DNA of 24,000 nt from Sediminihabitans luteus (GTDB taxonomy: Bacteria; Actinomycetota; Actinomycetes; Actinomycetales; Cellulomonadaceae): NCBI RefSeq assembly GCF_002797595.1, contig NZ_PGFE01000002.1, positions 604,337-628,336 of the forward strand, read 5' to 3'. Position 1 is the first letter of the stretch, and each line of letters opens with the position of its first letter. Positions 3,586 through 20,918 of the stretch are shown here, piece after piece. The notes beneath the pieces were generated by a model. It had not been told where the DNA came from, searched no databases, and worked only from the letters and a program-made list of their open reading frames with translations. Both the position numbers and the translations under genes were made by a program.

Positions 3586-4620
3586 TCGTGGTTCCGGGCC
3601 GAGCGCCGCCGCCGCGACGCGGGAGCGGGCCGTGGGGTCCATGAGCACGGGCACCGACGTGGCCCACTGCTCGACGGACGCCGTACCGGCCGACCAGGCC
3701 CGCACGCCCGCGTCGTCCACGGCGTCGCGCAGCAGCTCCGGCACGTCCCCGACCCCCGCGAAGCCGCGCGTGTGGAACGGCACGACGGCGCTCGCCGCAG
3801 CAGGCAGCCCCGTGTCGCGCTGCAGGTCGTGCAGCGTCTCGAGCGCCTCGACGATCGCGGCCTCGCGCGTGCGCCAGTCGTCCGCGGCGAGCGCGCGGCC
3901 CAGCGGCGCGGCGGTCACGGACGCCCGGGGCAGGCGCGCGTGCAACGTCCCGAGCCATTTCGCGTACGGCGGCCACCGTCGGTCGAGCCAGAACCCCAGG
4001 CGCACGGTGCGCTCGACGAGGCGCGCGGCGACCACCCGCGAGCCGAGGTCGTCGCCCCGCTCCCCCGCACGGCCCACGAACGGCAGCTCCTGCGCGATCG
4101 CCGCCCACTCGCCCGCGAGCACCGCGAGCCACACGTCGTGCGGCATCCACGCGAGTCGCTCGCGCACCGCGGTCAGCTCCCCCGCGACGTCCTCGAACAC
4201 GTCGCCCGCGACGACCTCGAGGACGCTCTGCCCGGTGAGCCCGAGCCACGCGGACGGCTCGAGCGGGGCGGTCGCGTCGACCCCGAGCCGGGAGTGCACG
4301 AACCCGGCGACGCTCGCGACGTCGACGCCGTGGCGCACCTGCGGCGACCACGTCGTGGCGAACCGGGTCGGGAGCCCGTCGAACGCCGGCGGCAGCACGT
4401 CCTCGAGCCACGCGTCGACGTCGGCGACGCGGTCGGCGTCGACCAGCAGCGTGAGCCGGTTGCCCCAGTCGTGGTCCGTCGACGTCCCGTCGTCCAGGCC
4501 GAGGACGTCGGAGCCGCTGCCGAGCCGTCCCGCGGCGTACCCCAGGCCGGGCCAGCGGTCCACGACGAGCGGTCGCACGACCTGCTCCCAGTAGCCGCGC
4601 GCCCGGGACGTCCCGCTCAC
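3568..4620 (-). CDS. DUF4037-type protein with an N-terminal Pol-beta-like nucleotidyltransferase motif
   Basis: The GTG start at 4620 overlaps the upstream stop (GTGA). The N-terminus GRLGSGSDVLGLDDGTSTDHDWG fits the G[SG]...D.D nucleotidyltransferase pattern. Overall it matches actinobacterial DUF4037 proteins as I remember them. GC3 is high. Confidence 0.7.
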   Translation of the reverse strand: MSGTSRARGYWEQVVRPLVVDRWPGLGYAAGRLGSGSDVLGLDDGTSTDHDWGNRLTLLVDADRVADVDAWLEDVLPPAFDGLPTRFATTWSPQVRHGVDVASVAGFVHSRLGVDATAPLEPSAWLGLTGQSVLEVVAGDVFEDVAGELTAVRERLAWMPHDVWLAVLAGEWAAIAQELPFVGRAGERGDDLGSRVVAARLVERTVRLGFWLDRRWPPYAKWLGTLHARLPRASVTAAPLGRALAADDWRTREAAIVEALETLHDLQRDTGLPAAASAVVPFHTRGFAGVGDVPELLRDAVDDAGVRAWSAGTASVEQWATSVPVLMDPTARSRVAAAALGPEPRRGPDA

Positions 4621-5264
4621 GACGCCTCATCCTCGCGCAGCGCCCGCGCTGCGGCCGGCGCCCGGTCGGCCTCCGGGTCGCCGTCGTGCCAGGCCCTGCG
4701 CACCTGCTCGAACCGCGTCGGCAGCGGCGGGCGGATCCCGGCCCAGCGCGCGTTGGTGCGCTGCACGTGCCGACGCCACGAGAGCACGAGCCCCTGCTTG
4801 GTGATCGGCAGGCCGCTCGCGACCGTGACGCCGTTGTCGTGCGTGTGGTGCACCGTGAGCAGCAGTGCGCGCGGCACGGACCCCTCGAGCTCGGCGCAGA
4901 GCTGGGCACGCACCTCGAACCAGCGGCGCACGAGCACGACCTCGCTCGCGTCGAGCCGGTGCTCGCGCACGGTGCGGTGCTTGCCGTGCTGGACCACGAC
5001 CTTCCCCTCGACCGCGCGAGCCGACTCCGGGCCGAGGTCGAACGAGTCCACGGTGCAGCGCAGCAGGTCGCCGTAGCGCGCACCCGTGGCGCGCGTGAGC
5101 CCGACGATCACCGCGAGCCGCACGACCTCGGGCTTGACCGCCGGGTCCATCGCGGCGGTCGCGAGGTCGCGCCACACGGTCTCCGCCTCCGCACGTGTCA
5201 CCGGCGGCCGGGGGTACCTTCCCTGGTCGGGGCTTGTCGGTTCCTGCTCGGGTGTCTGAGCCAT
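4617..5264 (-). CDS. Hypothetical protein with a degenerate, truncated tyrosine-recombinase-like catalytic domain (no HxxR box or catalytic Tyr region visible)
   Basis: GC3 is strong over the whole ORF. LAVIVGLTRATGARYGDLLRCTVDSFDL resembles recombinase box I (TG.R..E...L...D). GKHRTVREHRLDASEVVLVRRWFEVR resembles the K-containing beta-hairpin plus helix. The protein ends before any box II. The fold assignment is inference only. Confidence 0.6.
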   Translation of the reverse strand: MAQTPEQEPTSPDQGRYPRPPVTRAEAETVWRDLATAAMDPAVKPEVVRLAVIVGLTRATGARYGDLLRCTVDSFDLGPESARAVEGKVVVQHGKHRTVREHRLDASEVVLVRRWFEVRAQLCAELEGSVPRALLLTVHHTHDNGVTVASGLPITKQGLVLSWRRHVQRTNARWAGIRPPLPTRFEQVRRAWHDGDPEADRAPAAARALREDEAS

Positions 5265-7578: not shown

Positions 7579-7714
7579 GGGTCTCACGCTAGGCGGTGGG
7601 CGCGTTCCCGGCGCGGCGCGCGTCCCGAGGCGTCGGTCACACGCCGAGCCCACCCCCCGGGTCGTGGCTCGTGGGACGTCACGCGCGGCGGGACGGACCG
7701 TTGCGGGCCGCACT

Positions 7715-7731
7715 GCTTGGCACACTATTTT
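7715..7731. promoter_or_regulatory. AT-rich 17-mer GCTTGGCACACTATTTT, copy 2
   Basis: It matches 5280-5296 at 16/17 positions. On the minus strand it reads AAAATAGTGTGCCAAGC, with the -10 candidate TAGTGT about 140 nt upstream of the UGPase ATG and just downstream of the yciO terminator hairpin. Confidence 0.45.
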
Positions 7732-7742
7732 CTCCGAAGTGG

Positions 7743-7770
7743 GAGATCATCGGGCCTTCGCCCGGATCTC
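7743..7770 (-). terminator. Hairpin overlapping the yciO stop codon
   Basis: The hairpin is GAGATC-AT-CGGGC-CTTC-GCCCG-GATCTC. A second small hairpin, TCTCC-GAAGTG-GGAGA at 7731-7746, shares four bases with it, so the two are mutually exclusive. There is no U-tract. Confidence 0.4.
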
Positions 7771-8398
7771 AGGCGAAGCGGTCGGGGTCCCCCGCGCCCA
7801 CACGCACGACCTCGGGTGCGCCGTCCGACCAGTCCACGACCGTGGTCGGCTCGGTGCCGCACTCCCCCGCGTCGATCACCGCGTCGACGAGATGGTCGAG
7901 CTCCTCCTTGACCTGCCAGCCGTCGGTCAGCGGCTCGGCGTGCTCGGGCAGCAGGAGCGTGCTCGTCAGGATCGGCTCCCCCAGCTCGCGCAGGAGCGCC
8001 GCGACGACCCGGTTGTCGGGGATCCGCACCCCGACGGTCCGCTTCTTGGGATGGGCGAGCCGGCGCGGCACCTCGGCCGTCGCCGGCAGGATGAACGTGT
8101 ACGGCCCCGGCGTCGCGGCCTTGATCGCCCGGAACGCCGCGTTGTCGATCTTGACGAGCTGGCCGAGCTGGGCGAAGTCCGCGCACACGAGCGTGAAGTG
8201 GTGCTTGGCGTCGAGGTGGCGGACGGCGCGGATGCGGTCGGTCCCGTGCGTGTTCCCCATCCGTGTGCCCAGCGCGTAGCACGAGTCGGTCGGGTAGGCG
8301 ATGAGCCCGTCGTCCTGCAGGATCGCGACCGCCTGGGCGATCGCACGGGGCTGCGGGTCGTGCGGGTGGACGTCGAGGTAGCGGGCCATGCCCGCCAT
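7769..8398 (-). CDS. yciO: YciO family protein (TsaC/Sua5/YrdC fold, threonylcarbamoyl-AMP synthase paralogue)
   Basis: The similarity to E. coli YciO as I recall it is close and full length: HP.DPQ.R.I.QAV, YPTDS.YALG, HHFTLVC.D, TPGPYTFIL, VPRRL, KRTVGVR.P, LGEP.L.STL.LP, PTTV.D. Shine-Dalgarno GAGGGAG lies 4 nt before ATG 8398. The gene starts only 11 nt downstream of the preceding stop. Confidence 0.85.
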   Translation of the reverse strand: MAGMARYLDVHPHDPQPRAIAQAVAILQDDGLIAYPTDSCYALGTRMGNTHGTDRIRAVRHLDAKHHFTLVCADFAQLGQLVKIDNAAFRAIKAATPGPYTFILPATAEVPRRLAHPKKRTVGVRIPDNRVVAALLRELGEPILTSTLLLPEHAEPLTDGWQVKEELDHLVDAVIDAGECGTEPTTVVDWSDGAPEVVRVGAGDPDRFA

Positions 8399-8409
8399 GA
8401 TGCTCCCTC

Positions 8410-9018
8410 TCAGCGGGTGCCGCGCGCGCGTCCCGCGGCGTCAGCCATCGCCCGGGCCGCCTCGCGGCTCTGGAACGCGAGCTGCGCCCGCTTGGTCCCG
8501 ACCAGCACGCGCGGGCCGAGCTCGAAGCCGAGCCGCTGCACCCGCGCGACCGCCGCGACGTTGTCCGCGTCAGGCTCGACGACCACCCGCCGCGCCGCGG
8601 GGGCCGCGTACACGAAGCTCTCGAGGACCACCCCGAGCACGGCCCACGCCGACACCGGTGCGGCAGGCTTCGCGCCGAGCAGGAAGTGCAGCCCGACGTC
8701 GCCCTCGGCGACCGGGTACGTCTCGCCGACCGGGTCGTGCGCCGGGTCGTAGGTCTGCAGCAGGACGAACGGCTCGCCCTCCCAGCACAGCAGGAACGCG
8801 TGGTGCGTCTCGAGCGAGTCGACGAACGCGTACGTCGAGCGCAGCTCGTCCCGGGAGAGTCCGCCGAGGCCCCAGAAGCCGCTGCCGCGGTGCGTGACCC
8901 ACGCGTGCACGAGGTCGAGATCGGCGACCGGGTCGAGCACGCGCACGCTCGCCGTGCCGCCGTGCACGGTCGCGGTGTGGACGGTCTCGCCGGGTCGGCC
9001 GCTCAGGAGCAGGGTCAT
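8410..9018 (-). CDS. Siderophore N-acyltransferase, IucB/DesC (Acetyltransf_8-type GNAT) family, second copy
   Basis: ATG 9018 overlaps the acylase stop (ATGA) and is preceded by GGAGGA. It is paralogous to the N-terminus of 11498-13882: VHAWVTHRGSGFWGL vs LHAWLTDPHAAFWAM, YDPAHDP..GDVGLHFLL vs YDPARV..GDLGMHLLV, RVVVEPDADNVAAV vs RVVVEPDVRNTAIA. Confidence 0.75.
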   Translation of the reverse strand: MTLLLSGRPGETVHTATVHGGTASVRVLDPVADLDLVHAWVTHRGSGFWGLGGLSRDELRSTYAFVDSLETHHAFLLCWEGEPFVLLQTYDPAHDPVGETYPVAEGDVGLHFLLGAKPAAPVSAWAVLGVVLESFVYAAPAARRVVVEPDADNVAAVARVQRLGFELGPRVLVGTKRAQLAFQSREAARAMADAAGRARGTR

Positions 9019-11501
9019 CGGTCCTCCGCAGACGTGGTCGGTGTGGTCGCTGTGGTCGCTGTGGTCGGTATGGTCGCTGTGGTCGGGCCGTTCGTACCCT
9101 TCGGGGCTTTCGGAGCGGTCGCGTCCGCGTGCTGCGGGGGCGCCGGGCTGCGTCGCGCGGGCGGACCGTCGCAGGACTCGTCGCGCACGAGCCGCTCCCA
9201 CCGGGTCTCGACCCGCACGGTGCGCCCCGCGAGCCAGTGCGCGTGCTGGTCGGCGAAGTGCGGGCTGCGCGCGTCGCCCGCGGCGCCGAACGGCACGCCC
9301 CACCGGCTCGCGTCGCGGTCCCCCAGGTCCCAGACCCATCGCGCGGCAGGCCCGCGCCAGCACAGGTCGCTCGCGCCGGGCGTGCTCACGGTGCTGCAGA
9401 CGCAGTCGGTGTCGCCGCTGAGCCGTGACGCGCCGCCTGCACCGTCATCTCCTGCACCGTCATCTCCTGCACCGTCATCGCCTGCAAGGTCATCGTCTGT
9501 GCCAGTGCCACCCGTGCGGCCGTCGCCCAGGCCCGGCACCTGAGCGCCTGGCACCCCGAGGAACGCGTGCACCGGCACCAGCGTGTGTGACTCGCCCCAC
9601 GTCGCACCAGCAGGCTCCGTAGCGAGCGACTCCGTGCCCGCCGCCGCCATGACCGCTGTCGTCGTGCCTGCCGTCGTGGTGCCGTCGTCCCGGGCGTCCT
9701 CCGCGACGAGGTCGTCGAGCGCGGCGCGGGCCAGCGCGCGACCGTCGACGCCGAGCGCGGCCGCCGTCCCGCCGCGCGTCAGGTGCTCGATCGCGTCACC
9801 CACGCGGGCGGTCACGTCGAACCACGGAGCGAGCTCGGGCGAGAGACCGTGCTCGGCACGCAACGGCGCGAGCGCGGAATGACCGGCGACGCGGCGCACG
9901 AGGTGCGACCGCCAGCGTGCGTACGTGGCGGCGACCCGCGACCCGGCGTCCATCCGGGCGTCCCAGGCGCGCAGCTCGCGCAGCACGGTCCGCGCGCCGG
10001 CACCCAGGTGCGGGTCGTCGGCGGGCGGCAGGAGGGCGAGCAGCCCCGCGACGCTCGCGAGGAACGTGTCGGCGTGCACCTGCTGCTGCCCCTCGGGCGT
10101 CCCGGGCACCTCGTCGAGCAGGGCGCGGACGCGGCGCGCGCGGTGCGGCGCGGCGTACGCGTGGCCGTACGCGACGTCGGGTCGTTCGTTCGCGTCGACG
10201 GCCACGTCCGTGACGACCACGGGTGCGGGCAGCACGCGGCGTCCGGGTACGGGGTCGCCGTCGGGCGCCTGTGGCAGGTGCCCGTGCGCGGGCGGGACGT
10301 CGGGCACGAAGCCCGCCGTCAGGCGCAGCACCGCGCCCGTGTCGTCGGCGACGAGCACCCGGTTGACCGGTTCGACCCAGCCCGCGAGCGCCGTGGCGAC
10401 GTCGTGCGCGGTCGTGGCGTACAGGAGGGTGCGCATGCTGGCGATGCCGAGGTCGTGGGTGCGGTGGCCGGGCAGGTCGAGCGCGTAGGCGTGCTGCTCG
10501 GCGGCCACGGGTTCGGTCTCCGTGGGGTCCGGCACGGGCGTGACGGGCAGCACGACGCCGCGCGGTGTCGTGCTGCGCCGCACGGGGTGGGTGCGCACGC
10601 CGTCGACGGTCCGCACGGTGAGGTGCACGGTCTCGGTGGGGGCCGGCTCCCAGCCGTGGGGGCCGTGCGCCTCGCGGGTGCCGTCGGTGTGCTCGCGCAG
10701 GTGCTCGTGCGTGACGGTGACCTGGTGGGCGACGGCGTTGGTGATCCCCCAGGCGACGCTGCCGGCGTGGGCGAAGTGCGCGACGCCGGGCACGCCGGGC
10801 AGTGCGAGCCCGAGCACGTCGTACGCGTCGCACGCGAGGCGGACCTGCTGGTAGGTGCCGGGCAGCTCGAGCACGCGGTGCGGGTCGCCGGCGAGCAGGG
10901 GGTGGCCCGTGGCGGTGCGCGCCCCGGCGAGGGCCCACGCGTTGCTGCCGGGGCCGGGGCCGCCGTCCGCGGCGAAGAGGTCGGCGAGCGCGGTCGCGGG
11001 GACGTCGGGGTGGTGGGGCGCGAGGGTGCGCACGACGTGGTCGCGCCAGAGCTGGTGCGGGAAGTCGTTGAACAGCACGTGCGCGACGAGCAGGACGCCG
11101 ATCGGCGTCCACGGCTGCCAGGGGGCCGGGTCGGGCGTGGGGCCGGGCAGCGTCTCGAGGGTGCGGTGCTCGGGGGTGTCGCGGCCGCCGTCGGCGAGGC
11201 CTGCGTTGACGCCGCGCGCGTACGCCTCGACCCAGGTGCGTTCGGGGTCGGCGAGGGCGGCGTACACGCGGCGCGCGGTCTCGTCGAGGCGCAGGTGGGT
11301 CGCCAGGACGTCCCAGTCGAGGGCGGTCTCGCCGAGGTGCGCGGCGAGGCGCGCCTCGGACCGCCACCGGTCGACCTCGATCTGCCAGCCGCGGTCACGG
11401 GCGGTGACGTACCCCTGGGCCTCGGCGAGCGTGAGCTCGTCGGGAGCGCGCAGGTGCGGCACGCCGTGGGCGTCGCGCCAGGTGCGCCAGCGGTGGGTCA
11501 T
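9015..11501 (-). CDS. Penicillin acylase (penicillin amidase) family Ntn hydrolase with no signal peptide
   Basis: ATG 11501 overlaps the upstream stop (ATGA). The N-terminus RDAHGVPHLRAPDELTLAEAQGYVTARDRGWQ is the conserved alpha-subunit start. The autoprocessing and nucleophile site is GPG|SNAWALAG, with the Ser codon at 10944-10946. The C-terminal GDTDCV...ARWVWDL...GDARSPHFADQHAHWLAG matches the family. The 11502-13127 part of the tracked ORF is off-frame junk. Confidence 0.85.
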   Translation of the reverse strand: MTHRWRTWRDAHGVPHLRAPDELTLAEAQGYVTARDRGWQIEVDRWRSEARLAAHLGETALDWDVLATHLRLDETARRVYAALADPERTWVEAYARGVNAGLADGGRDTPEHRTLETLPGPTPDPAPWQPWTPIGVLLVAHVLFNDFPHQLWRDHVVRTLAPHHPDVPATALADLFAADGGPGPGSNAWALAGARTATGHPLLAGDPHRVLELPGTYQQVRLACDAYDVLGLALPGVPGVAHFAHAGSVAWGITNAVAHQVTVTHEHLREHTDGTREAHGPHGWEPAPTETVHLTVRTVDGVRTHPVRRSTTPRGVVLPVTPVPDPTETEPVAAEQHAYALDLPGHRTHDLGIASMRTLLYATTAHDVATALAGWVEPVNRVLVADDTGAVLRLTAGFVPDVPPAHGHLPQAPDGDPVPGRRVLPAPVVVTDVAVDANERPDVAYGHAYAAPHRARRVRALLDEVPGTPEGQQQVHADTFLASVAGLLALLPPADDPHLGAGARTVLRELRAWDARMDAGSRVAATYARWRSHLVRRVAGHSALAPLRAEHGLSPELAPWFDVTARVGDAIEHLTRGGTAAALGVDGRALARAALDDLVAEDARDDGTTTAGTTTAVMAAAGTESLATEPAGATWGESHTLVPVHAFLGVPGAQVPGLGDGRTGGTGTDDDLAGDDGAGDDGAGDDGAGGASRLSGDTDCVCSTVSTPGASDLCWRGPAARWVWDLGDRDASRWGVPFGAAGDARSPHFADQHAHWLAGRTVRVETRWERLVRDESCDGPPARRSPAPPQHADATAPKAPKGTNGPTTATIPTTATTATTPTTSAEDR
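9034..9087. repeat. 9-bp tandem repeat x6 (GTGGTCGST) in the 3' tail of the acylase gene
   Basis: The units are gtggtcggt, gtggtcgct, gtggtcgct, gtggtcggt, atggtcgct, gtggtcggg. They encode PTTATIPTTATTATTPTT in the acylase frame. Confidence 0.9.
9436..9495. repeat. 15-bp tandem repeat x4 (CCTGCACCGTCATCT) inside the acylase gene
   Basis: Two copies are perfect and two diverged. The array is in frame and encodes DDLAGDDGAGDDGAGDDGAGG, inserted just before the conserved C-terminal GDTD block. Confidence 0.9.
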
Positions 11502-13882
11502 GCGCGGGCGGGGTTGGCGAGCGTGCCGGCGTACAGCAGGGACGACGACTGGTCGGTGAGGTCGACCATCTGGAGCGTGTTGCGCAGCTGGAGCCGGTTG
11601 AGGCAGCTGTGGGCGAAGCGCTGGGCGCGCAGGTCGACGCCGGTGCGCAGGTCGGGGTGCTCGGCGCGGTGGGTGTCGATGACGTCGGCGACCTCGGCCC
11701 AGAACGCGGTCTCGGGCAGGGTGCCGTCGACGGCGAGGATCCCGGCGAGGTGCCGCAGCACGCCGTCGAACACGTCGGTGAAGATCGCGAGCGCCTTCTC
11801 GGTGTCGTCGACGACGGCGCGCACGCGCTCGACCTCGGGCGGCAGGGCACGCTCGCCGAGCACGGCGACCTCCTCCCCGATGTCCTTCATGTACGCGCGC
11901 ACGGGCACGTGGTCGCGCAGCACGAGGATGAGGTTCTCGCCGTGGGGCATGAACGCGAGGTCGTGCGCGAGCAGCGCGTGCACGAGGGGCCGCAGGTACA
12001 CGTCGAGGTAGGCGCGCAGCCAGGTGCGGGCGTCCAGGCCCGAGCGGCGTACGAGCGCGGTCGCGTACGAGGCGCCGTGGGCGTCGCGGTGCAGGAGCGC
12101 GGCCATGGTCGCGCAGCGCTCCCCCGGCGCGGTGCGGGCGGTCGGGTTCTCGCGCCAGAGTGCGGCGAGCATCTTGCGGTGCGCGGACGGCGCGGCGGTG
12201 CGGTGGTACACGTCGCCGGTGTAGCCGATCGACGCGTGCTCGCGCAGCACCTCGAACCCGGCGAACCCGGGGTCGCCTGCGACGAGGTCGTGCACCCAGT
12301 CGTTGATCTGCGGCGTGACGCGCATGTAGGCGGGCGACAGGCCGCGCAGGAACCCCATGTTCTGGATCGCGAGCGCGACCTTGACGTAGTCGGCGCCGGG
12401 GCGGGTGCGGTTGAGCAGGGTGCGGATCGACTGCTGCGGCTGGTACTCGTCGGCGCCCGTGCCGAGCGGCACGAGGTCGCCGCGGGCGACGTCCGCGGCG
12501 AACGTGACGGGCACGCGGTGCTGCCACTGCCAGGGGTGCACGGGCAGCAGGTGGTAGGCGGCAGGGTCGTGCCCCCGCGCGGCGAGACGCTCGGTGAACG
12601 CGGCGTGCTCGTCGGGGGTGATCTGCCGCGCCAGGTGCGTGGCCTCGTCGAGGCCCGCGCCGAGCGCGAGGTGCGTGTGGTCGCGGTGCGCGGCGAGCCA
12701 CACGAGGCGCGTGCGGGCGCCGCGCTCGGGCGCGTAGGCGAGGTAGTCGTCGAGGGAGAAGCCGATGCGGCCGTTGTTGGCGACGAAGGCCGGGTGGCCC
12801 TCGGTCATGGCGGCCTCGACGGTCGGCAGGTCGGCGTCGGCGAGCTCGTCGGCGCGCGGGCCGCCCGCGTGGTCCTTCGCGGCGCCGGCGGCGAGCGTCG
12901 AGGAGACCTCCTCGAGGTAGGTCGCGAGCAGCGCGTCGGGGATCGCGAGCACGGGCTGGAGCTCGACCACGAGCGCGAGCGCGTCGAGGTCGGCGGCGGC
13001 GCCGTCGACCGTGCGGGTGATGCTCGGCTCGTCGATCACCCAGTGCTCGAGCGCGAACCGGGCGGCGCGGAACCGGTGCACGACCAGCCCGTGGTCGGTG
13101 TCGAGCGCGAGCTCGAACCAGGCCCACGTGGCCCGGTCCTGGGGGTCGGCCTCGGCATCCCCGAGCGCGCGGGGCGCGAGCAGCCGTTCGTGGCTGAGCT
13201 CCGCGAGGGTCTTGGCGACCAGGTGACGGTGCGCGCGGGCCATGGGTGACGCTGCGTCGCCGGTGTCTGGCGTGCCGGCGTCCGGCACGTCGGCGCCCGC
13301 GCGCAGGTGCGGCGCGAGGTCGACCCCGTCGCCCAGGGGGCTCGCGGCGAAGTCGTCGCGGGTGCAGACCGAGAGCGCGGCGCGCTTGCCGGGCAGGTCG
13401 ACCTCGCGCAGCACGCGGAACCCGGCGGCGGCGTTCTTGGCCGCGATCGCGGTGTTGCGCACGTCCGGCTCGACCACGACGCGTGCGGCGCCGAGGCCGT
13501 GGAGGCAGAACCGGACGACGGCGCTCATGAGCGCCGACGTGAAGCCGTGGCGGGGCGCGTCCCCGGGCGGGGCGACGAGCAGGTGCATGCCGAGGTCGCC
13601 GGGGGCGGCGTCGTGCACCTGGTCGAGCAGCACGCGCGCCGGGTCGTAGGTCTCGACGTAGACGGCGGGCTCACCGTCCACGGTCCCGAGCCACGGGGCC
13701 TGCGCCGGGTCCTGCACGAGCGCGTCGAGGTAGTCGCGCACCTGGGACAGGTCGTGGTCGCCCATGGCCCAGAACGCGGCGTGCGGGTCGGTGAGCCAGG
13801 CGTGCAGGGTCGGGGCGTCGTCGCGGGTCGCGGGACGCAGGACGACGGTCCCGACCCGTGTGCGGACAGTGTGCTCGTTCAT
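11498..13882 (-). CDS. Fused siderophore N-acyltransferase (IucB/DesC-like) and IucA/IucC-family NIS synthetase with an FhuF-like C-terminus (DfoC-type architecture)
   Basis: ATG 13882 overlaps the upstream stop (ATGA). The first roughly 180 aa are a GNAT domain, described under 8410-9018. The remainder carries IucA/IucC hallmarks: HPAFVANNGRIGF, LPVHPWQWQ, QQSIRTL, YVKVALAIQNMGFLRGLSP and PHGENLILV. Confidence 0.88.
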   Translation of the reverse strand: MNEHTVRTRVGTVVLRPATRDDAPTLHAWLTDPHAAFWAMGDHDLSQVRDYLDALVQDPAQAPWLGTVDGEPAVYVETYDPARVLLDQVHDAAPGDLGMHLLVAPPGDAPRHGFTSALMSAVVRFCLHGLGAARVVVEPDVRNTAIAAKNAAAGFRVLREVDLPGKRAALSVCTRDDFAASPLGDGVDLAPHLRAGADVPDAGTPDTGDAASPMARAHRHLVAKTLAELSHERLLAPRALGDAEADPQDRATWAWFELALDTDHGLVVHRFRAARFALEHWVIDEPSITRTVDGAAADLDALALVVELQPVLAIPDALLATYLEEVSSTLAAGAAKDHAGGPRADELADADLPTVEAAMTEGHPAFVANNGRIGFSLDDYLAYAPERGARTRLVWLAAHRDHTHLALGAGLDEATHLARQITPDEHAAFTERLAARGHDPAAYHLLPVHPWQWQHRVPVTFAADVARGDLVPLGTGADEYQPQQSIRTLLNRTRPGADYVKVALAIQNMGFLRGLSPAYMRVTPQINDWVHDLVAGDPGFAGFEVLREHASIGYTGDVYHRTAAPSAHRKMLAALWRENPTARTAPGERCATMAALLHRDAHGASYATALVRRSGLDARTWLRAYLDVYLRPLVHALLAHDLAFMPHGENLILVLRDHVPVRAYMKDIGEEVAVLGERALPPEVERVRAVVDDTEKALAIFTDVFDGVLRHLAGILAVDGTLPETAFWAEVADVIDTHRAEHPDLRTGVDLRAQRFAHSCLNRLQLRNTLQMVDLTDQSSSLLYAGTLANPARA

Positions 13883-15177
13883 CGGGCACCCCCGTCGGGC
13901 AGTCCGAACTGCTGGAACGCGATGCGGCGTTCGACCGGGTAGGGCTCGTGGCCGAGGATCGTCGAGAGGATCACGGCGTTGCGCCAGGCCCCCATGCCGA
14001 GGTCGGGGGCGGTCAGACCGTGCGTGTGCTCCTCGGCGTTCTGCACGTGCAGGGTCCGCGAGGGCTCGACCGTGTAGTCGCGCGTGACGGCGAGGCGTCC
14101 GCGCGCGTCGCGGTCGAGCAGGTCGCGCACGGGGCCCAGGAACGCGGGCTCCGCCGCGGCGTACCCGGTCGCGACGACGACGGCGCGCGTGCGGTGCGTC
14201 GTCCCACGGTCGAGCTGGGCGTGGTGCAGGCGCAGCTCGATGCCGTCGACGTCCGTGCTCGCCGCGACGACCTCGGTGTCGGTCAGGAGGGTCGTGGGCA
14301 CGCGGTGCTCGAGGCTCAGGCGGTACAGGGTGTCGTAGATGTCGTCGACGAGGTCGCCGCTGATGCCCTTGTACAGCCCGCGCTGCTCGCGCCCGAGCCG
14401 GTCGCGCAGCTCGAGCGGCAGCGCGTGGAAGTGGTCGGTGTACTCGGGCGACGTCATCTCGAGCGTGAGCTTGGTGTACTCCATCGGGAAGAACCGCGGC
14501 GAGCGCGTGACCCAGTCGAGCCGGTCGAGCGGGCCGCCGCCGTGCGGCGTGCGCAGCTCGCCGAGCAGGTCGCGGTAGATCTCGGCAGCGGACTGCCCGC
14601 TGCCGACGACGGTCACGTGCCCGGCGGCGAGCAGCACGGTGCGGCGCGCGAGGTACTGCGCGGAGTGCACCGCGCTGTCGCCGAGGTCGCGCAGCGCGGG
14701 CGGCAGCACGGGGCTCGTGCCCGTGCCGAGCACCACGTGGCGGGCACGGTAGGTCTCCACGGTGCCGTCGGCGAGCTCGGCGCGCGCGACCCAGGTGTCG
14801 GCGTCACGCTCGAGCGAGACGACCTGGCGGCCCCAGCGCAGCGACCCGAGGCGGGCGGCGGCCCACCGGCAGTACGCGTCGTACTCGGCGCGCAGCGGGT
14901 AGAAGCTCTCGCGGATGTAGAACGGGTACAGCCGCCCGACGTCCTTGAGGTACGCGAGGAACGAGTACGGCGACGTCGGGTCGGCCATGGTCACGAGGTC
15001 GGCGAGGAACGGCACCTGGATGGTCGCGCCGTCGATCATCATGCCGGGGTGCCAGCGGAACTCGGGCGCCTGGTCGACGAACACCGCGTCGAGGTCGAGC
15101 GGGTCGGCGAGGCACGCGAGGCCCAGGTTGAACGGGCCGATGCCCACGCCGAGGACGTCGTGCACGTGCGCGCTCAT
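13879..15177 (-). CDS. Lysine/diamine N-hydroxylase, FAD-dependent (IucD/DesB/PvdA family)
   Basis: ATG 15177 overlaps the decarboxylase stop (ATGA), with GGAGG 8 nt upstream. The FAD motif is GVGIGPFNLGLA and the NADPH motif is VVGSGQSAAEI. The upstream 15178-16284 portion of the tracked ORF is R-rich junk. Confidence 0.9.
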   Translation of the reverse strand: MSAHVHDVLGVGIGPFNLGLACLADPLDLDAVFVDQAPEFRWHPGMMIDGATIQVPFLADLVTMADPTSPYSFLAYLKDVGRLYPFYIRESFYPLRAEYDAYCRWAAARLGSLRWGRQVVSLERDADTWVARAELADGTVETYRARHVVLGTGTSPVLPPALRDLGDSAVHSAQYLARRTVLLAAGHVTVVGSGQSAAEIYRDLLGELRTPHGGGPLDRLDWVTRSPRFFPMEYTKLTLEMTSPEYTDHFHALPLELRDRLGREQRGLYKGISGDLVDDIYDTLYRLSLEHRVPTTLLTDTEVVAASTDVDGIELRLHHAQLDRGTTHRTRAVVVATGYAAAEPAFLGPVRDLLDRDARGRLAVTRDYTVEPSRTLHVQNAEEHTHGLTAPDLGMGAWRNAVILSTILGHEPYPVERRIAFQQFGLPDGGAR

Positions 15178-16661
15178 CGGCTCGCCTCCAGGTCGAGCAC
15201 GCCGGCGCCGTCGAGCAGCCGGTCCGGGTCGGCGAGCACCTGCGCGGTCGTGCGCACGAGCTCGAGCACGCGCAGCACGTCCTCGAGGCGCGAGTCCGGG
15301 TTGAGCAAGGTCAGCTTGAGGCAGGGGCGGCCGTCGATGACGGTCTTGGTCACGATCGCCCGACCGGAGTCGAACAGCAGCCGACGCACGGCCGGCACGA
15401 TCGCGTCGGCGCGCGCCGGGTCGAGCCCGGCGGGCTCGTAGCGGAACAGCACGGTGCTGAGCTGGGTCGGGGCCACGACGTGCAGGTCGGGGTCGTCCGC
15501 GAGCGCGGCGTGCACCTGCGCGGCGAGGTCGCACACGGCGTCGACCATGCGCCCGACGCCGTCGGGGCCGAGCGCGCGGAGCGTGACCCAGAGCTTGAGC
15601 GCGTCGAACCGGCGCGTCGTCTGCAGCGACTTGTCGACCTGGTTGGGCTCGGCGTTCGCGAGCGGGTTGAGGTAGTCGGCGTGCCACGCGACCGGTGCGA
15701 GGTCCGCGGGCTCGCGCACGACGAGCGCGCTCGAGGACACGGGCTGGAAGAAGCTCTTGTGGAAGTCCACGGTGACGCTGCGCGAGCGCTCGACGCCCGC
15801 GAGCAGGTGACGCCGCGTGGGCGAGACCAGGAGCCCGCAGCCGTAGGCCGCGTCGACGTGCAGCCACGCCCCGGTCGGGTCGCAGGCGTCCGCGATCGCG
15901 TCGAGCGGGTCGATGCAGCCGCGGTCGGTGGTCCCGGCGGTCGCGACGACGGCCATGACGTGCTGGCCCGCGGCCGCGACGTCGTGCAGGACGACGCTCA
16001 GCGAGGCCGGGTCCATGCGCCCGGACGCGTCGGCGGGCACCTCGACGACGGCGTCGTGCGCGAGCCCGAGCAGCAGCGCGGACTTGCCGACGCTGAAGTG
16101 GCTGGACGCGGTCGCCAGGACGCGCAGTCGTGCGGTCGCGGCGGTGCGCGCCTCGCCCTCGGCGGCGCCGAGGGCGCGCAGCGCGGACTCGCGGGCGAGG
16201 AACAGCGCCTGCAGGTTCGACTGCGTGCCGCCCGAGGTGAACACGCCGTCGCCCTGCGCGTACCCGATCCGGCGTGCGGTCCACTCGACGAGGCGGCGCT
16301 CCATGAGCGTGCCCACGGTCGACTGGTCGTACGTGTCGACCGAGGTGTTGACCGCGGCGAGCACGGCCTCGGCGGCCACGGCGGGCAGCGCGACCGGGCA
16401 GTTGAGGTGCGCGGTGTACGCCGGGTCGTGGAACCAGACCGCGTGGCGCAGGTAGAGGTCGCCGATCTCGTCGAGGGCGGCCTGCGTGCCCTCCCCCGCG
16501 GTGTCGAGGTCGACGGCGTCGACGAGCTGCTCGAGCTGCTCACGGCTCGCGCCGGAGAACGGCTGCGTCGTGGTCGCGAAGCGCTCGGCGAGCGTGTCGA
16601 CGACGCCGTGCAGCGTGGTGGCGTAGCGTTCCGCGGTCGCGGCGGACAGCAGGGCGGACAT
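15174..16661 (-). CDS. PLP-dependent amino-acid decarboxylase (group II; DesA/DfoJ, or L-2,4-diaminobutyrate/lysine decarboxylase-like)
   Basis: FTSGGTQSNLQALFLAR and the PLP-lysine box SVTVDFHKSFFQPVSSSALV are present. GGGAG lies 7 nt upstream of ATG 16661. It is the first gene after the iron box. Confidence 0.9.
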   Translation of the reverse strand: MSALLSAATAERYATTLHGVVDTLAERFATTTQPFSGASREQLEQLVDAVDLDTAGEGTQAALDEIGDLYLRHAVWFHDPAYTAHLNCPVALPAVAAEAVLAAVNTSVDTYDQSTVGTLMERRLVEWTARRIGYAQGDGVFTSGGTQSNLQALFLARESALRALGAAEGEARTAATARLRVLATASSHFSVGKSALLLGLAHDAVVEVPADASGRMDPASLSVVLHDVAAAGQHVMAVVATAGTTDRGCIDPLDAIADACDPTGAWLHVDAAYGCGLLVSPTRRHLLAGVERSRSVTVDFHKSFFQPVSSSALVVREPADLAPVAWHADYLNPLANAEPNQVDKSLQTTRRFDALKLWVTLRALGPDGVGRMVDAVCDLAAQVHAALADDPDLHVVAPTQLSTVLFRYEPAGLDPARADAIVPAVRRLLFDSGRAIVTKTVIDGRPCLKLTLLNPDSRLEDVLRVLELVRTTAQVLADPDRLLDGAGVLDLEASR

Positions 16662-16681
16662 GGGCGGGCTCCCGACTCGTC

Positions 16682-16700
16682 TGAGGTTTGGCTGGCCTAA
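16682..16700. promoter_or_regulatory. IdeR/DtxR/DmdR-type iron box upstream of the siderophore operon
   Basis: TGAGGTTTGGCTGGCCTAA matches the palindromic consensus TWAGGTWAGSCTWACCTWA at 15/19 positions. It lies 21-39 nt upstream of ATG 16661. It overlaps a minus-strand TANNNT candidate, TAAGTT, at 16699-16704. Confidence 0.6.
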
Positions 16701-16852
16701 CTTAGCCCATCCTCACTCGGGCGAAACACCCCATCTCCCACTCCGGGCACCGGGCATTCGCGACGAACCCTCCGCGCCCACGGGCGGCGCGCGCGTTTAC
16801 CGCGGAACGGTGCGCCTCGCCGCACCCCGCCGGGACGCGGCTGTCGCGGACG

Positions 16853-17899
16853 TCACACGTACCGCGCGACGTCCGCCCGCTCCGCCGGGCTCACGTTGCC
16901 GCCCGTGAGCGCCACACCCACCCGGGCGCCCGCGAACCGACCGGGGTCGGCCAGCACGGCCGCGAGCGCCGCGGCACCGGCCCCCTCGACCACGGTGCCG
17001 GTGCGCACGAGCAGCGCGGCCTGCGCGCGCCGCAGGTCGGCGTCGTCGACGAGCACGAAGTCCGCGAGGTGCTCGGCGAGCACGCGCTGCGTGAGCGCGA
17101 ACCCGGCCCCGGTCGCCAGGCCCTCGGCGAACGACGTGTTCGATCGCTCGACGAGGCGGCCGGTGCGCCACGAGTCGTGCGCGGCGGGCGACGACGCGGA
17201 CTGCACGCCCACGACCGCGCAGCCCGGGGCGAGGTGGGCCGCGGCGAGGCAGGCGCCCGCGGCGCCGCTGCCGCCGCCCACCGGGACGAGCAGGACGTCG
17301 AGGGGCGCTTCGTCGAATGGCACTGTGCCGGTGTGCGGGAGGTCCTCGAGCATCTCGACGTAGGCCGTGGCCGCACCCGCCACGATCTCGGGCTCGCCCG
17401 CGGCCGTGACGTACCGGGCGCCGTCCTGTGCCGCGAGGACCTGCGCGTGCTCGGCGGCCTCGGTCAGGGTCGGGCCGTGCAGCACGAGGCGCGCGCCGAG
17501 GGCCTCGACGGCCGCGGCCTTGGTGGGGTTGGGATGCTCGGGCATGACGATCGTGCACGCCGTGCCGGTCTCGCGCGCCGCGTACGCGAGCGCCTGCGCG
17601 TGGTTGCCGGTCGAGTACCCGACGATCCCGCGGGCGCGCTGCGCGGGCGCCATGGCGAGCAGCAGGGTGAGCGCGCCGCGGAGCTTGAAGGCTCCGGTGA
17701 CCTGCCGCTCCTCGTGCTTGACGACGACGCGGGTGCCCGTCAGGTCGTCGAGCGCGGCCCAGGTGCGCGTCGGGGTCCGCACGACGCTGCCGTGGGCGGC
17801 CAGGAGGTCGCGGGCGTGCCGGACGTCGTCGAACGTCGGCACGCGCGGGGACGGGCGGGTCGACGCGGTCGGACGGGCGGCGAGCGGGCTCAGGGTCAT
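16853..17899 (-). CDS. PLP-dependent threonine/serine dehydratase family enzyme (Trp-synthase beta-like fold)
   Basis: The start is placed at ATG 17899 (MTLSPLAARP), with GGAGG 2 nt upstream. The PLP-lysine motif is QVTGAFKLRGA. STGNHAQALAYAA and the glycine loop VPVGGGSGAAG are present. Confidence 0.8.
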   Translation of the reverse strand: MTLSPLAARPTASTRPSPRVPTFDDVRHARDLLAAHGSVVRTPTRTWAALDDLTGTRVVVKHEERQVTGAFKLRGALTLLLAMAPAQRARGIVGYSTGNHAQALAYAARETGTACTIVMPEHPNPTKAAAVEALGARLVLHGPTLTEAAEHAQVLAAQDGARYVTAAGEPEIVAGAATAYVEMLEDLPHTGTVPFDEAPLDVLLVPVGGGSGAAGACLAAAHLAPGCAVVGVQSASSPAAHDSWRTGRLVERSNTSFAEGLATGAGFALTQRVLAEHLADFVLVDDADLRRAQAALLVRTGTVVEGAGAAALAAVLADPGRFAGARVGVALTGGNVSPAERADVARYV

Positions 17900-17993: not shown

Positions 17994-18998
17994 ATGGACC
18001 TGCACCGTCTGCGCATGCTCGTCGCGGTCGCGCACGAGGGCACGATCACCGCCGCCGCGGAGTCGCTGCACACGTCCCAGCCGTCCGTCTCGCACCACCT
18101 GGCACGCCTCGAGGCCGAGGTCGGGGTCCCGCTGCTGCAGCGCGACGGTCGGGGCGTGCGGCTGACCGCCGCGGGCGCCCTGCTCGTGCGCCGCGCCGAG
18201 GAGCTGCTCGGGCGCGTCGAGGCGACGCGTGACGAGCTGCGGACCCTCGCCCACCTGGGTGCGGGGCGCGTGCGGCTCGCCGCGTTCCCGTCGGCGCTGG
18301 CGACGCTCGTGCCGGCCGCCGTCGCGGCCCTCGTGCGCGCGCACCCCGGCGTCGACGTCGAGCTCGTCGAGGCCGAGCCGCCCGAGGCGCTCTCGCTCGT
18401 GCGGCGCGGGACGGTCGACGTCGCGCTCGTGTTCGAGCACGATCACGCCGCGAACGACCGCCACGGGCTCGCCGCGCACCCCGTCATGACCGATCCCGTG
18501 CACCTGATCACGCCGCTCGGGGGCGTGACAGCTGACGGCGCGACAGGTGACGGCGAGTCGGGCGGCCGCGCGGAGCACGACGGGTCGGCGCCCGAGGAGC
18601 CGGAGGAGGACGGGTCGGACGGCGGGTCGGACCTGGCCCGGTGGCGCGACGTCCCGTGGATCGCGGGCTGCGAGCGGTGCCGCGCCGACCTGCTCGGGCG
18701 GTGCGAGCGCGCGGGCTTCACGCCGCGCATCGCGTTCGAGACCGACGACTACGTCGCGGTGCAGGCCCTGGTCGCCGCCGGCATGGGCGTGAGCCTGCTG
18801 CCCGGCCTCGCGCTCGCCGCGCACCGTGACCCGCGCGTGCGCGGCGAGGCCGTGACCGACGCGCACCGCACCGTGCTCGCAGTGACGTACGCCGACCGGC
18901 CGCCGCCCGCCGCGGGGGCGCTGGTCGACGCGCTCGTGACCGCCGGGCGCGCGACCGCCCACCCGTCCCCGCCACAGGCTGACCCGGTCACGCGCTGA
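17994..18998 (+). CDS. LysR family transcriptional regulator
   Basis: The N-terminal wHTH is LRMLVAVAHEGTITAAAESLHTSQPSVSHHLARLEAEVGVPLLQRDGRGVRLTAAG. It is divergent from the dehydratase gene, the classic LysR layout. Confidence 0.9.
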   Translation: MDLHRLRMLVAVAHEGTITAAAESLHTSQPSVSHHLARLEAEVGVPLLQRDGRGVRLTAAGALLVRRAEELLGRVEATRDELRTLAHLGAGRVRLAAFPSALATLVPAAVAALVRAHPGVDVELVEAEPPEALSLVRRGTVDVALVFEHDHAANDRHGLAAHPVMTDPVHLITPLGGVTADGATGDGESGGRAEHDGSAPEEPEEDGSDGGSDLARWRDVPWIAGCERCRADLLGRCERAGFTPRIAFETDDYVAVQALVAAGMGVSLLPGLALAAHRDPRVRGEAVTDAHRTVLAVTYADRPPPAAGALVDALVTAGRATAHPSPPQADPVTR

Positions 18999-19077
18999 CC
19001 CCGTCGCCCACTGACCCGTCGACCACTGGCCCGTCGACCACTGACACCGTCCCGCGCAGACCCCGTCGCACGCGGAC
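18979..19077. repeat. Degenerate 15-16-bp tandem units (CTGACCCGTCGACCA-like) spanning the LysR stop
   Basis: The units are ctgacccggtcacgcg, ctgaccccgtcgccca, ctgacccgtcgacca, ctggcccgtcgacca, ctgacaccgtcccgcgca and gaccccgtcgcacgcg. They grade into the perfect array that follows. Confidence 0.6.
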
Positions 19078-19152
19078 CCCGTGTCACCGGCGCCCGTGTC
19101 ACCGGCGCCCGTGTCACCGGCGCCCGTGTCACCGGCGCCCGTGTCACCGGCG
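19078..19152. repeat. Perfect 15-bp tandem repeat x5 (CCCGTGTCACCGGCG)
   Basis: Five identical head-to-tail copies end 17 nt before ATG 19170. The array is intergenic. Confidence 0.95.

Positions 19153-19169: not shown

Positions 19170-20918
<1,749 letters not shown>

Follow-up and report, generated by a model that had tools for sequence, protein, structure and literature searches.

The five minus-strand genes at 16661..8410 of the 24-kb window (the whole stretch of DNA from Sediminihabitans luteus, Cellulomonadaceae, that was analysed) make up what is most probably an ordinary iron-regulated desferrioxamine operon, desA-desB-desCD-desG-desH, and the last two, which a first-pass annotation of this DNA had singled out as surplus to the pathway, are the already published accessory pair desG/desH. 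We put at about 70% the joint probability that the locus is a single iron-repressed, translationally coupled operon for a desferrioxamine-type hydroxamate siderophore and that DesG and DesH carry out an acyl swap, a role proposed from the Streptomyces coelicolor model and the family relationships found here. The four junctions are ATGA overlaps (TCAT on the plus strand) at 15174-15177, 13879-13882, 11498-11501 and 9015-9018, exactly where the first-pass annotation had placed them, and the NCBI gene calls on the same DNA (GCA_016863455.1) are identical to its own in lengths and junctions. Pfam also agrees with the claimed order and product types for all five proteins, of 495 aa (PF00282, E 4e-58), 432 aa (PF13434, E 4e-113), 794 aa (PF13523, PF04183 and PF06276), 828 aa (PF01804, E 2e-123) and 202 aa (PF13523, E 5e-36).

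Desferrioxamine-type assembly starts from lysine or a similar diamino acid, which DesA decarboxylates; the resulting diamine is N-hydroxylated by DesB and then succinylated by the DesC domain, and the DesD domain oligomerises the units. Gene desA (15174..16661) encodes a PLP-dependent diamino-acid decarboxylase of the DesA/DfoJ type with DfoJ (5o5c, E 1e-125) as its nearest relative of solved structure; its orthologues, 59-75% identical, head the operon in related loci, and its best NCBIfam match is a diaminobutyrate decarboxylase model, on which it falls far under the cut-off, leaving cadaverine, putrescine and diaminopropane as candidate diamines. Gene desB (13879..15177), which starts in the ATGA overlap with desA and has GGAGG 8 nt upstream, encodes an FAD-dependent diamine N-hydroxylase of the DesB/DfoA type matching 6xbb (E 6e-144), DfoA 5o8p (E 2e-126) and the putrescine N-hydroxylase 7us3 (E 2e-113) in the PDB. 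Gene desCD (11498..13882) is a DfoC-type fusion of an N-terminal PF13523 acyltransferase domain (about 13394-13825), an IucA/IucC synthetase domain (about 12089-12823) and a FhuF-like C-terminal domain (about 11576-12025); its product gives a full-length match to DfoC (5o7o, E 2e-195, residues 10-792) and matches DesD structures at E 1e-160, and by a rough test about 32 of 63 related loci likewise have desC and desD as one continuous reading frame. The four Pfam families by which a desABCD core is recognised within 5 kb (PF00282, PF13434, PF13523 and PF04183; PMC12161575) are all there, in genes overlapping by 4 nt. Together with the close homology to the characterised DfoJ, DfoA, DfoC and DesD, this bears out the earlier assignment to a DesABCD/DfoJAC-type NIS pathway with two accessory genes. 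Activities and order are those of Erwinia amylovora DfoJ-DfoA-DfoC and Streptomyces DesABCD; the former also shares the acyltransferase-IucA/IucC fusion but lacks desG and desH, whereas in Streptomyces desC and desD are separate and the transport and reductase genes desE/desF adjoin the cluster. Pfam scans of every neighbouring gene found no transporter or ferric-siderophore reductase gene in the window, which upholds the earlier claim that none is adjacent.

A DtxR/IdeR/DmdR1-type iron box, recognised by sequence match and listed without a strand, lies at 16682..16700, 20 nt upstream of the desA ATG at 16661; the first-pass annotation was right about such a box before the first ATG, but its spacing of 21 nt was not. 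On the coding strand the box reads TTAGGCCAGCCAAACCTCA; compared with TTAGGTTAGGCTAACCTAA it matches at 14/19 positions, or 15/19 on the opposite strand, as the top match of the window, and a weaker match (13/19) overlaps it at 16697-16715, also upstream of desA. An iron box (13-17/19) is found upstream of desA in 62 of the 62 related loci having that gene; in a control of 400 random 260-nt windows from related loci, at least 12 matches were reached in three, with a maximum of 13. Iron boxes also lie upstream of the stand-alone desGH of Arthrobacter/Pseudarthrobacter and, at 18/19, between desJ and desG of Streptomyces rochei.

The reference for orthology to the Streptomyces pair was an S. rochei locus of the published layout (SIP gene, iron box, amidase, GNAT, cupin, SDR), and both S. 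luteus proteins prove to be orthologues of the pair encoded there. DesG (9015..11501), an S45 Ntn-hydrolase of the penicillin-acylase family, is 40% identical over its full length to the DesG of this desJGH locus (E 7e-123). DesH (8410..9018), a second PF13523 N-acyltransferase and DesC paralogue whose start overlaps desG and has GGAGGA 4 nt upstream, gives 42% and 138 bits against S. rochei DesH versus 32% and 68 bits against the window's own DesC domain. The pair is recognised by PF01804 and PF13523 within 1 kb (PMC12161575), either in a des cluster or in a separate iron-boxed locus; here the two genes overlap and sit inside the des operon behind its iron box. The S. coelicolor desJGH locus (SCO4048-4050) likewise has a PF01804 amidase gene directly ahead of one for a PF13523 acyltransferase, both under a box of the DmdR1/IdeR type, but it includes desJ (a SIP-type reductase), which the window lacks, and in Streptomyces desGH form a separate locus whereas here they belong to the desABCD transcription unit. 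Micrococcus CH3/CH7 also carry desGH inside the des cluster, fused there but separate and ATGA-coupled here; G-H fusions are reported in Micrococcus and S. atratus (PMC12161575), desG and desH are continuous in one frame in five of the related loci, and database entry P0102 is a fused G-H protein.

The caution that an association of acylase and siderophore genes might not be unique was well placed. The acylase and second GNAT co-occur with the siderophore genes in colinear desA-B-C-D-G-H order in 61 of the 80 genomes having a DesG homologue, the majority layout in the relatives sampled, with genera that include Cellulosimicrobium, Isoptericola, Cellulomonas, Microbacterium, Agromyces, Mumia and Promicromonospora; in a further five of the 80, contigs break off at desD-G-H. 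A desH orthologue (43-59% identical) directly follows desG in 75 of the 80 loci. Judged by these roughly 60 equivalents, an in-operon desGH is the common arrangement outside Streptomyces.

DesG is predicted to process itself between Gly185 and Ser186 (Ser codon 10944-10946) at a conserved motif, giving the N-terminal Ser nucleophile that S45 enzymes obtain by autoproteolysis at a Gly-Ser site. Residues G185-S186-N187, H208 and R209 are invariant in 79 sequences, and in alignments with 35sz and 4hsr S186 falls on the first residue of the mature beta chain. The AF2 model (pLDDT 86, pTM 0.88) shows the alpha-beta-beta-alpha Ntn fold of S45 enzymes, with its alpha and beta segments, and Foldseek pairs it with over 50 S45 structures at probability 1.00; disorder in the model is confined to the inserts. 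These are an insert at aa 662-688 (nt 9438-9518; 15-nt repeat at 9434-9499) and a C-terminal tail at aa 791-828 (nt 9018-9131; 9-nt repeat at 9034-9085), both species-specific; such repeat-derived disordered insertions distinguish this DesG from those of Streptomyces and Micrococcus. The canonical S45 precursor is exported and carries an N-terminal signal peptide (PMC11241749), but DesG does not: neither a signal peptide nor a hydrophobic leader occurs in the window protein or in 19 homologues aligned in full, and in all of these the conserved RDxxGxPH motif comes within about 20 residues of the N-terminus. The missing signal peptide agrees with the earlier description of the acylase as cytoplasmic and fits action on cytoplasmic intermediates.

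Among characterised enzymes, the best fold match to DesG is the D-succinylase of Cupriavidus sp. P4-10-C (7eby, E 1e-32), then class III and class I glutaryl acylases, and these succinyl/glutaryl acylases rank ahead of MacQ, PvdQ and the penicillin G acylases; by sequence, 4hsr matches at E 4e-41, 7eby at E 3e-18 and PvdQ at E 2e-5. Like DesG, 7eby and the glutaryl-7-ACA acylases (4hsr, 1keh, 3s8r; fold matches from E 1e-32 to 1e-25) have the S45 fold, Gly-Ser site and Ser nucleophile, and they cleave C4/C5 dicarboxylic-acid amides as is proposed for DesG, but they are 16-27% identical to it, and in place of hydroxamates their substrates are beta-lactams or N-acylated amino acids. Such relatives fit a dicarboxylic-acyl substrate, a specificity for which the nearest fold neighbours, at 22-27% identity, are only suggestive.

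The novelty that the first-pass annotation implied for the two genes does not stand. The name desG was given to the acylase gene of Micrococcus sp. CH3/CH7 in 2017 (Cruz-Morales et al., PMC5812494), and desG and desH were knocked out in S. coelicolor in 2025 (Augustijn et al., PMC12161575), where LC-MS of the null mutants showed desferrioxamine B down about 1000-fold (desG) and 16-fold (desH) and more desferrioxamine E, both mutants being complemented; S. coelicolor is the only organism from which lower B-type desferrioxamine on loss of either gene is known (PMC12161575). In the published model, DesG strips succinyl from N-hydroxy-N-succinylcadaverine and DesH adds acetyl to the amine (PMC12161575). 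The gene pair, its desferrioxamine link, its iron regulation and its occurrence in Micrococcales des clusters are all published, and the cap/de-cap and acyl- or aryl-cap ideas put forward from the sequence are two hypotheses already in the literature (PMC12161575; PMC5812494), so the discovery value is small. The statement that no biochemical description of the pair was known is right for in-vitro work, both enzymes still being termed "putative" in July 2026 (PMC13495013).

We propose that DesG is a cytoplasmic Ntn-hydrolase which, after self-cleavage at Gly185/Ser186, would use Ser186 as nucleophile to cleave the succinyl hydroxamate of an N-hydroxy-N-succinyl-diamine, giving the free N-hydroxy-diamine. 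DesH would then re-acylate the free amine with a different acyl-CoA, acetyl as in the published model or possibly another acyl or aryl group, and the resulting chain-terminating cap unit would shift the output from cyclic or all-succinyl to linear capped products of the desferrioxamine B type. Micrococcus strains that carry desGH within the des cluster reportedly yield aryl-capped, not acetyl-capped, desferrioxamines (PMC5812494), so an acetyl cap is not assured for S. luteus. It also speaks against the acyl swap that it implies a cycle wasting succinyl-CoA, and that the effect of the desG knockout far exceeds that of desH. This difference is no obvious outcome of simple precursor editing, so DesG may act on something else, for instance a linear oligomer. 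DesG would in that case take the terminal N-succinyl off a linear dimer or trimer (e.g. desferrioxamine G1) and DesH would cap the exposed hydroxylamine, which we regard as quite unlikely; the stronger desG phenotype is easier to explain if DesG gives access to a route that DesC is unable to circumvent, the modelled DesG has the full-size S45 fold seen in enzymes that accept bulky leaving groups (such as cephalosporin nuclei), and the G-H fusions and ATGA coupling are compatible with hand-over of any intermediate, but the published authors prefer the monomer (PMC12161575).

The original 2017 hypothesis for desG, which was also the alternative offered by the first-pass annotation, is that DesG and DesH jointly install phenylacetyl or long-chain caps, with DesG either catalysing synthesis or providing the acyl donor, so that aryl/acyl-desferrioxamines would take the place of an acetyl-capped product. 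The aryl-desferrioxamines reported from Micrococcus CH3 and CH7, with desG in the des cluster (PMC5812494; S3 table, PMC12161575), speak for it, and the cluster type in the window (in-operon desGH, order Micrococcales) is nearer to Micrococcus than to Streptomyces. Such capping nevertheless seems unlikely to us: the phenylacetyl-acting penicillin G acylases are distant (alpha subunits at E about 1e-7 to 1e-9 by sequence, Foldseek rank 20 and below) and succinyl and glutaryl acylases far closer, an acyl-CoA-dependent DesH would be a simpler source of any cap, and S. coelicolor has desGH without aryl products (PMC12161575). The comparison with Pseudomonas aeruginosa PvdQ survives as a conceptual likeness, since this Ntn-hydrolase of a siderophore locus deacylates a siderophore intermediate, as proposed for DesG, and the fold-level family resemblance is real; PvdQ, however, is periplasmic and removes a fatty acyl group from an NRPS product, and its similarity to DesG is weak (Foldseek rank 17 and below, well under the succinyl/glutaryl acylases). 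That DesG strips a temporary acyl group off a finished precursor during export, as PvdQ does for pyoverdine, or frees iron by hydrolysing ferric siderophore after uptake, is highly improbable, given that it lacks the signal peptide with which PvdQ and canonical S45 enzymes are exported (PMC11241749), scores 32 bits on the NCBIfam bi_acylase_PvdQ equivalog against a cut-off of 950 and adjoins no transporter gene, and that the S. coelicolor knockout shifts which siderophore is made and has no maturation or uptake defect (PMC12161575). It is rather unlikely, too, that the in-operon DesG of Cellulomonadaceae and other Micrococcales, in place of the succinyl-to-acetyl swap on the monomer, acts on linear oligomers or as a transacylase and with DesH yields a desferrioxamine congener, capped with an aryl or other acyl group, that is undescribed in these bacteria; if it did, the DesG proteins without signal peptide would form a separate S45 branch, cytoplasmic and specific for hydroxamates, with a new substrate class.

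For the acyl swap, which we prefer, the succinyl/glutaryl-amidase fold relatives and the clade without signal peptide narrow the DesG substrate hypothesis, and the roughly 60 equivalent loci offer many candidate enzymes for in-vitro biochemistry of DesG and DesH. Desferrioxamine B is in clinical use as an iron chelator, so the installation of its acetyl cap is of some applied interest.

The best PDB sequence match to DesG is 35sz (E 2e-72), which is closest to a Gordonia acylase (62% over 57% of the query, the query being the recovered part of the 35sz chain). In the Gordonia nocardichelin-type locus (G. rubripertincta CWB2, PMC12161575, and a locus of Gordonia sp.) an acylase directly follows GNAT and IucA/IucC genes, with a decarboxylase and an N-hydroxylase nearby as in the window, but NRPS modules are added and no desH comes right after the acylase. 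One 45%-identical DesG homologue lies in an unrelated sugar-type cluster, so members of the acylase clade also occur outside siderophore loci.

The two genes that the first-pass annotation regarded as surplus to the siderophore pathway of this operon are already named and studied as desG and desH, and the locus is a further member of a known, widespread cluster type. Cruz-Morales et al. (2017) described a penicillin-amidase gene conserved within the Micrococcus des cluster, named desG, for which a role in phenylacetyl cap addition was proposed; iron-boxed desG copies at other sites in Arthrobacter and Streptomyces genomes and DesC-DesD fusions were described in the same paper (PMC5812494). According to Augustijn et al. 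(2025), desJGH (SCO4048-4050) is a DmdR1-controlled operon of S. coelicolor; desferrioxamine B was ~1000-fold lower in the desG null mutant and ~16-fold lower in the desH null mutant, and desferrioxamine E was raised in both (PMC12161575). In the model proposed there, DesG de-succinylates N-hydroxy-N-succinylcadaverine and the freed amine is acetylated by DesH. That study also reports that desG and desH share an operon, that they are fused in Micrococcus and S. atratus, that strains without desGH make uncapped products only, and, in a supplementary table, that carriers of desGH include Micrococcus, Salinispora, Micromonospora and Pimelobacter (PMC12161575). The acyl-capping and de-capping step suggested earlier for the amidase and the second acyltransferase is essentially this published model. 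A July 2026 paper still terms both DesG and DesH putative (PMC13495013), and our literature search found no in-vitro or structural study of DesG.

As judged from sequence, the five-gene operon encodes the desferrioxamine NIS pathway in the version with a DfoC-type fusion. Pfam profiles bear out the assignment of all five products: desA (15174-16661, minus strand, as are all five) encodes a PLP decarboxylase (PF00282), desB (13879-15177) a lysine/ornithine-type N-hydroxylase (PF13434), desCD (11498-13882) a 794-aa PF13523 acyltransferase fused to an IucA/IucC synthetase with an FhuF-like C-terminal domain, desG (9015-11501) an 828-aa penicillin-amidase family protein (PF01804, E 2e-123) and desH (8410-9018) a 202-aa second PF13523 acyltransferase. 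The closest solved structure to the decarboxylase is DfoJ (5o5c, E 1e-125), and those closest to the hydroxylase are 6xbb and DfoA (5o8p, E 2e-126). For the fusion, the match to DfoC extends over the full length (5o7o, E 2e-195) and that of its synthetase part to DesD structures reaches about 1e-160; the best structural-database match of DesH is the N-terminal domain of DfoC, followed by NcdE. By Pfam content and spacing, the window classifies as both "desABCD" and "desGH" under the operational rules of PMC12161575.

The five ORFs span 16661-8410 and are joined, as first described, by four ATGA stop/start overlaps at 15174-15177, 13879-13882, 11498-11501 and 9015-9018; the public NCBI gene calls for the S. 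luteus genome agree in every length and junction, and the window DesG is 100% identical to the NCBI entry "penicillin amidase [Sediminihabitans luteus]", a species of Cellulomonadaceae, Micrococcales. Longer starts were considered and rejected for desG (ORF to 13127, which would overlap desCD by 1.6 kb) and for desH (ORF to 9363; in the 202-aa form, the Pfam domain begins at residue 29), in both cases in agreement with NCBI. Inspection of the junctions across the operon revealed GGAGG/GGGAG Shine-Dalgarno-like motifs upstream of desA, desB and desH and none upstream of desG, which would fit re-initiation at the ATGA. The iron box noticed before the first ATG is present at 16682-16700, with a spacing of 20 nt and not the 21 first given; with 14-15 of 19 positions agreeing with the DtxR/IdeR consensus, it scores highest in the window. 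A scan of 7600-17100 for sigma-70 promoters and intrinsic terminators, which is uninformative at 75% GC in an actinobacterium, found none; the GC content of the window is 73-78%.

The association of the acylase and the second acyltransferase with siderophore genes, left to neighbourhood analysis by the first-pass annotation, proved to be the majority arrangement in the relatives sampled. Scanning one genome per species yielded 80 loci with DesG homologues (39-52% identity), and 61 of them carry a colinear desA-B-C-D-G-H arrangement. The others comprise D-G-H on short, cut contigs (five), B-C-D-G-H (one), G-H alone (eight), G alone (four) and A-B-C-D-G without H (one). A rough reading-frame test indicates C-D fusion in about half of the loci and G-H fusion in five. 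An iron box of 13-17/19 lies within 250 nt upstream of desA in all 62 loci that have this gene; of 400 random windows used as a control, one scored 13 and none scored 14. Four of the G-H-only loci of Arthrobacter/Pseudarthrobacter have a 14-17/19 box directly before desG.

Comparison with the Streptomyces operon relied on the S. rochei homologue P0163, whose locus is arranged as published, with a SIP/FAD_binding_9 gene and an 18/19 iron box, then genes for a 689-aa amidase, a 210-aa PF13523 protein, a cupin and a short-chain dehydrogenase. The window DesG and the S. rochei amidase share 40% identity over the full length (E 7e-123). Against the S. rochei GNAT, the window DesH reaches 138 bits (42%), compared with 68 bits (32%) against the DesC domain of its own operon, whereas that DesC domain scores 93 bits against the S. 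rochei DesH; these cross-scores indicate that DesH and DesC are distinct paralogue lineages, and they place the small GNAT of the window in the DesH lineage, apart from DesC. The same split was seen in every related locus compared. P0163 took the place of P0064 (Streptomyces sp. NPDC046862, locus L081), which was rejected as a link to desJGH: it lies in an unrelated sugar/aminoglycoside-like cluster without a GNAT. At 5430-8085 of L081, this 45%-identical acylase homologue stands among NUDIX, APH, GHMP-kinase, aminotransferase, glycosyltransferase and NDP-sugar genes, and since neither a PF13523 gene nor a des gene was found in that cluster, at least one member of the acylase clade occurs outside a siderophore setting. 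In Gordonia sp. NPDC127522 (L085, 1801-14985), an expanded locus holds NRPS, GNAT, IucA/IucC, acylase, condensation-domain, decarboxylase and N-hydroxylase genes and is similar to the nocardichelin-type cluster treated in PMC12161575. Its acylase is called in two pieces (512 and 332 aa), which may reflect a frameshift or assembly error.

Our analysis of DesG suggests how it may be activated and which acyl group it may remove. In a 79-sequence alignment, there is no variation at G185-S186-N187, H208-R209 and N438 and almost none at H242; the "A437-N438" motif presumably supplies the S45 oxyanion-hole Asn. In alignment, S186 falls at residue 1 of the mature beta chain in both 35sz and the class III cephalosporin acylase 4hsr, and DesG is therefore predicted to be activated by self-cleavage at Gly185|Ser186. 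The AlphaFold model built from the same alignment (pLDDT 86, pTM 0.88) has low-confidence segments of at least 10 residues at 614-623, 662-688 and 791-828 and a short one at 236-240. Searched by Foldseek against a PDB fold library extending to April 2026, in which 35sz is not an entry, the model retrieved the D-succinylase 7eby/7ea4 first (E about 1e-32), followed by a class III engineered cephalosporin (glutaryl) acylase, class I glutaryl-7-ACA acylases, and then the AHL acylase MacQ, PvdQ and penicillin G acylases; the sequence search ranked these relatives in the same order. As the nearest characterised relatives cleave succinyl or glutaryl amides, de-succinylation fits DesG better than either the phenylacetyl role proposed in 2017 or the fatty-acyl trimming of PvdQ, against whose NCBIfam model DesG scores 32 bits (cut-off 950). 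At 16-27% identity, these fold and sequence neighbours are a pointer to a de-succinylating enzyme, not proof of one. The canonical S45 precursor has a signal peptide, but DesG has none: in a 20-sequence alignment, all proteins begin near a conserved RDxxGxPH motif and lack a hydrophobic leader, which would place DesG alongside cytoplasmic intermediates. PDB 35sz, a "Penicillin acylase family protein" of a 195-aa alpha and a 576-aa beta chain, is the solved structure nearest to DesG by a wide margin (E 2e-72). No publication describing it was found; 414 of its beta-chain residues, rebuilt from the HMMER alignment, had no exact match in the protein database; the best hit was at 51%, and a partial protein from Gordonia reached 62%. 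35sz may be the first structure of the DesG type.

Compared with most homologues, the window DesG has 60-130 additional residues, owing to a (GDDGA)n insertion, a C-terminal tail and extra length in a variable loop around residue 615. The insertion, of 30 residues, is encoded by an in-frame 15-nt tandem repeat (9434-9499, x 4.4), and the Thr/Ala/Pro-rich tail derives partly from an in-frame 9-nt repeat (9034-9085, x 5.8). The (GDDGA)n loop and the Thr/Ala-rich tail occur in none of the 19 homologues aligned in full, and all three segments are predicted by AlphaFold to be disordered. The tail resembles the linker of fused DesGH proteins such as P0102; desG and desH lie one frame apart at their ATGA, so the split and fused forms would be separated by a single frameshift.

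To the right of the operon lie genes for a PLP enzyme, a LysR regulator, an aldo-keto reductase, tRNA-Pro, Der GTPase, PlsC and Cmk, and to the left those for Sua5/YciO, UDPGP, an IMPACT-family protein, DUF4037, Dps, DUF58 and MoxR. All are unrelated to siderophore transport, so the earlier statement that no transporter is adjacent is correct. The PLP enzyme (PALP, 16853-17899) was rejected as a cluster member: the iron box separates it from desA, and LysR-PALP-Sua5-UDPGP are contiguous elsewhere. When window positions 7769-17899 were compared with related loci L015 (12755-16870), L002, L004, L005 and L020, this block was found downstream of desH in Paraoerskovia (immediately so) and Cellulosimicrobium; in the window, the entire 8.3-kb des operon lies between PALP and Sua5. 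Since these two genes are split here and contiguous in relatives, the operon appears, from gene order, to have moved as one unit inside a shared neighbourhood.

An Rfam scan of the window returned tRNA-Pro only. At its 5' end, the longest aldo-keto-reductase ORF overlaps this tRNA-Pro(GGG) gene (20811-20885, minus strand); the reductase gene must therefore start further downstream, in agreement with the NCBI call. A 215-aa ORF at 4617-5264 (minus strand) has a weak, sub-threshold Phage_integrase match (E 3e-4, 20.9 bits against a cut-off of 27.1). A small ORF of 143 aa at 19170-19601 (plus strand) is without a Pfam match; between it and the end of the LysR gene (18998) lies a perfect 15-nt tandem repeat in five copies (CCCGTGTCACCGGCG, 19078-19152), which is preceded by degenerate 15/16-nt repeats (CTGACCCGTCGACCA) at 18978-19082.
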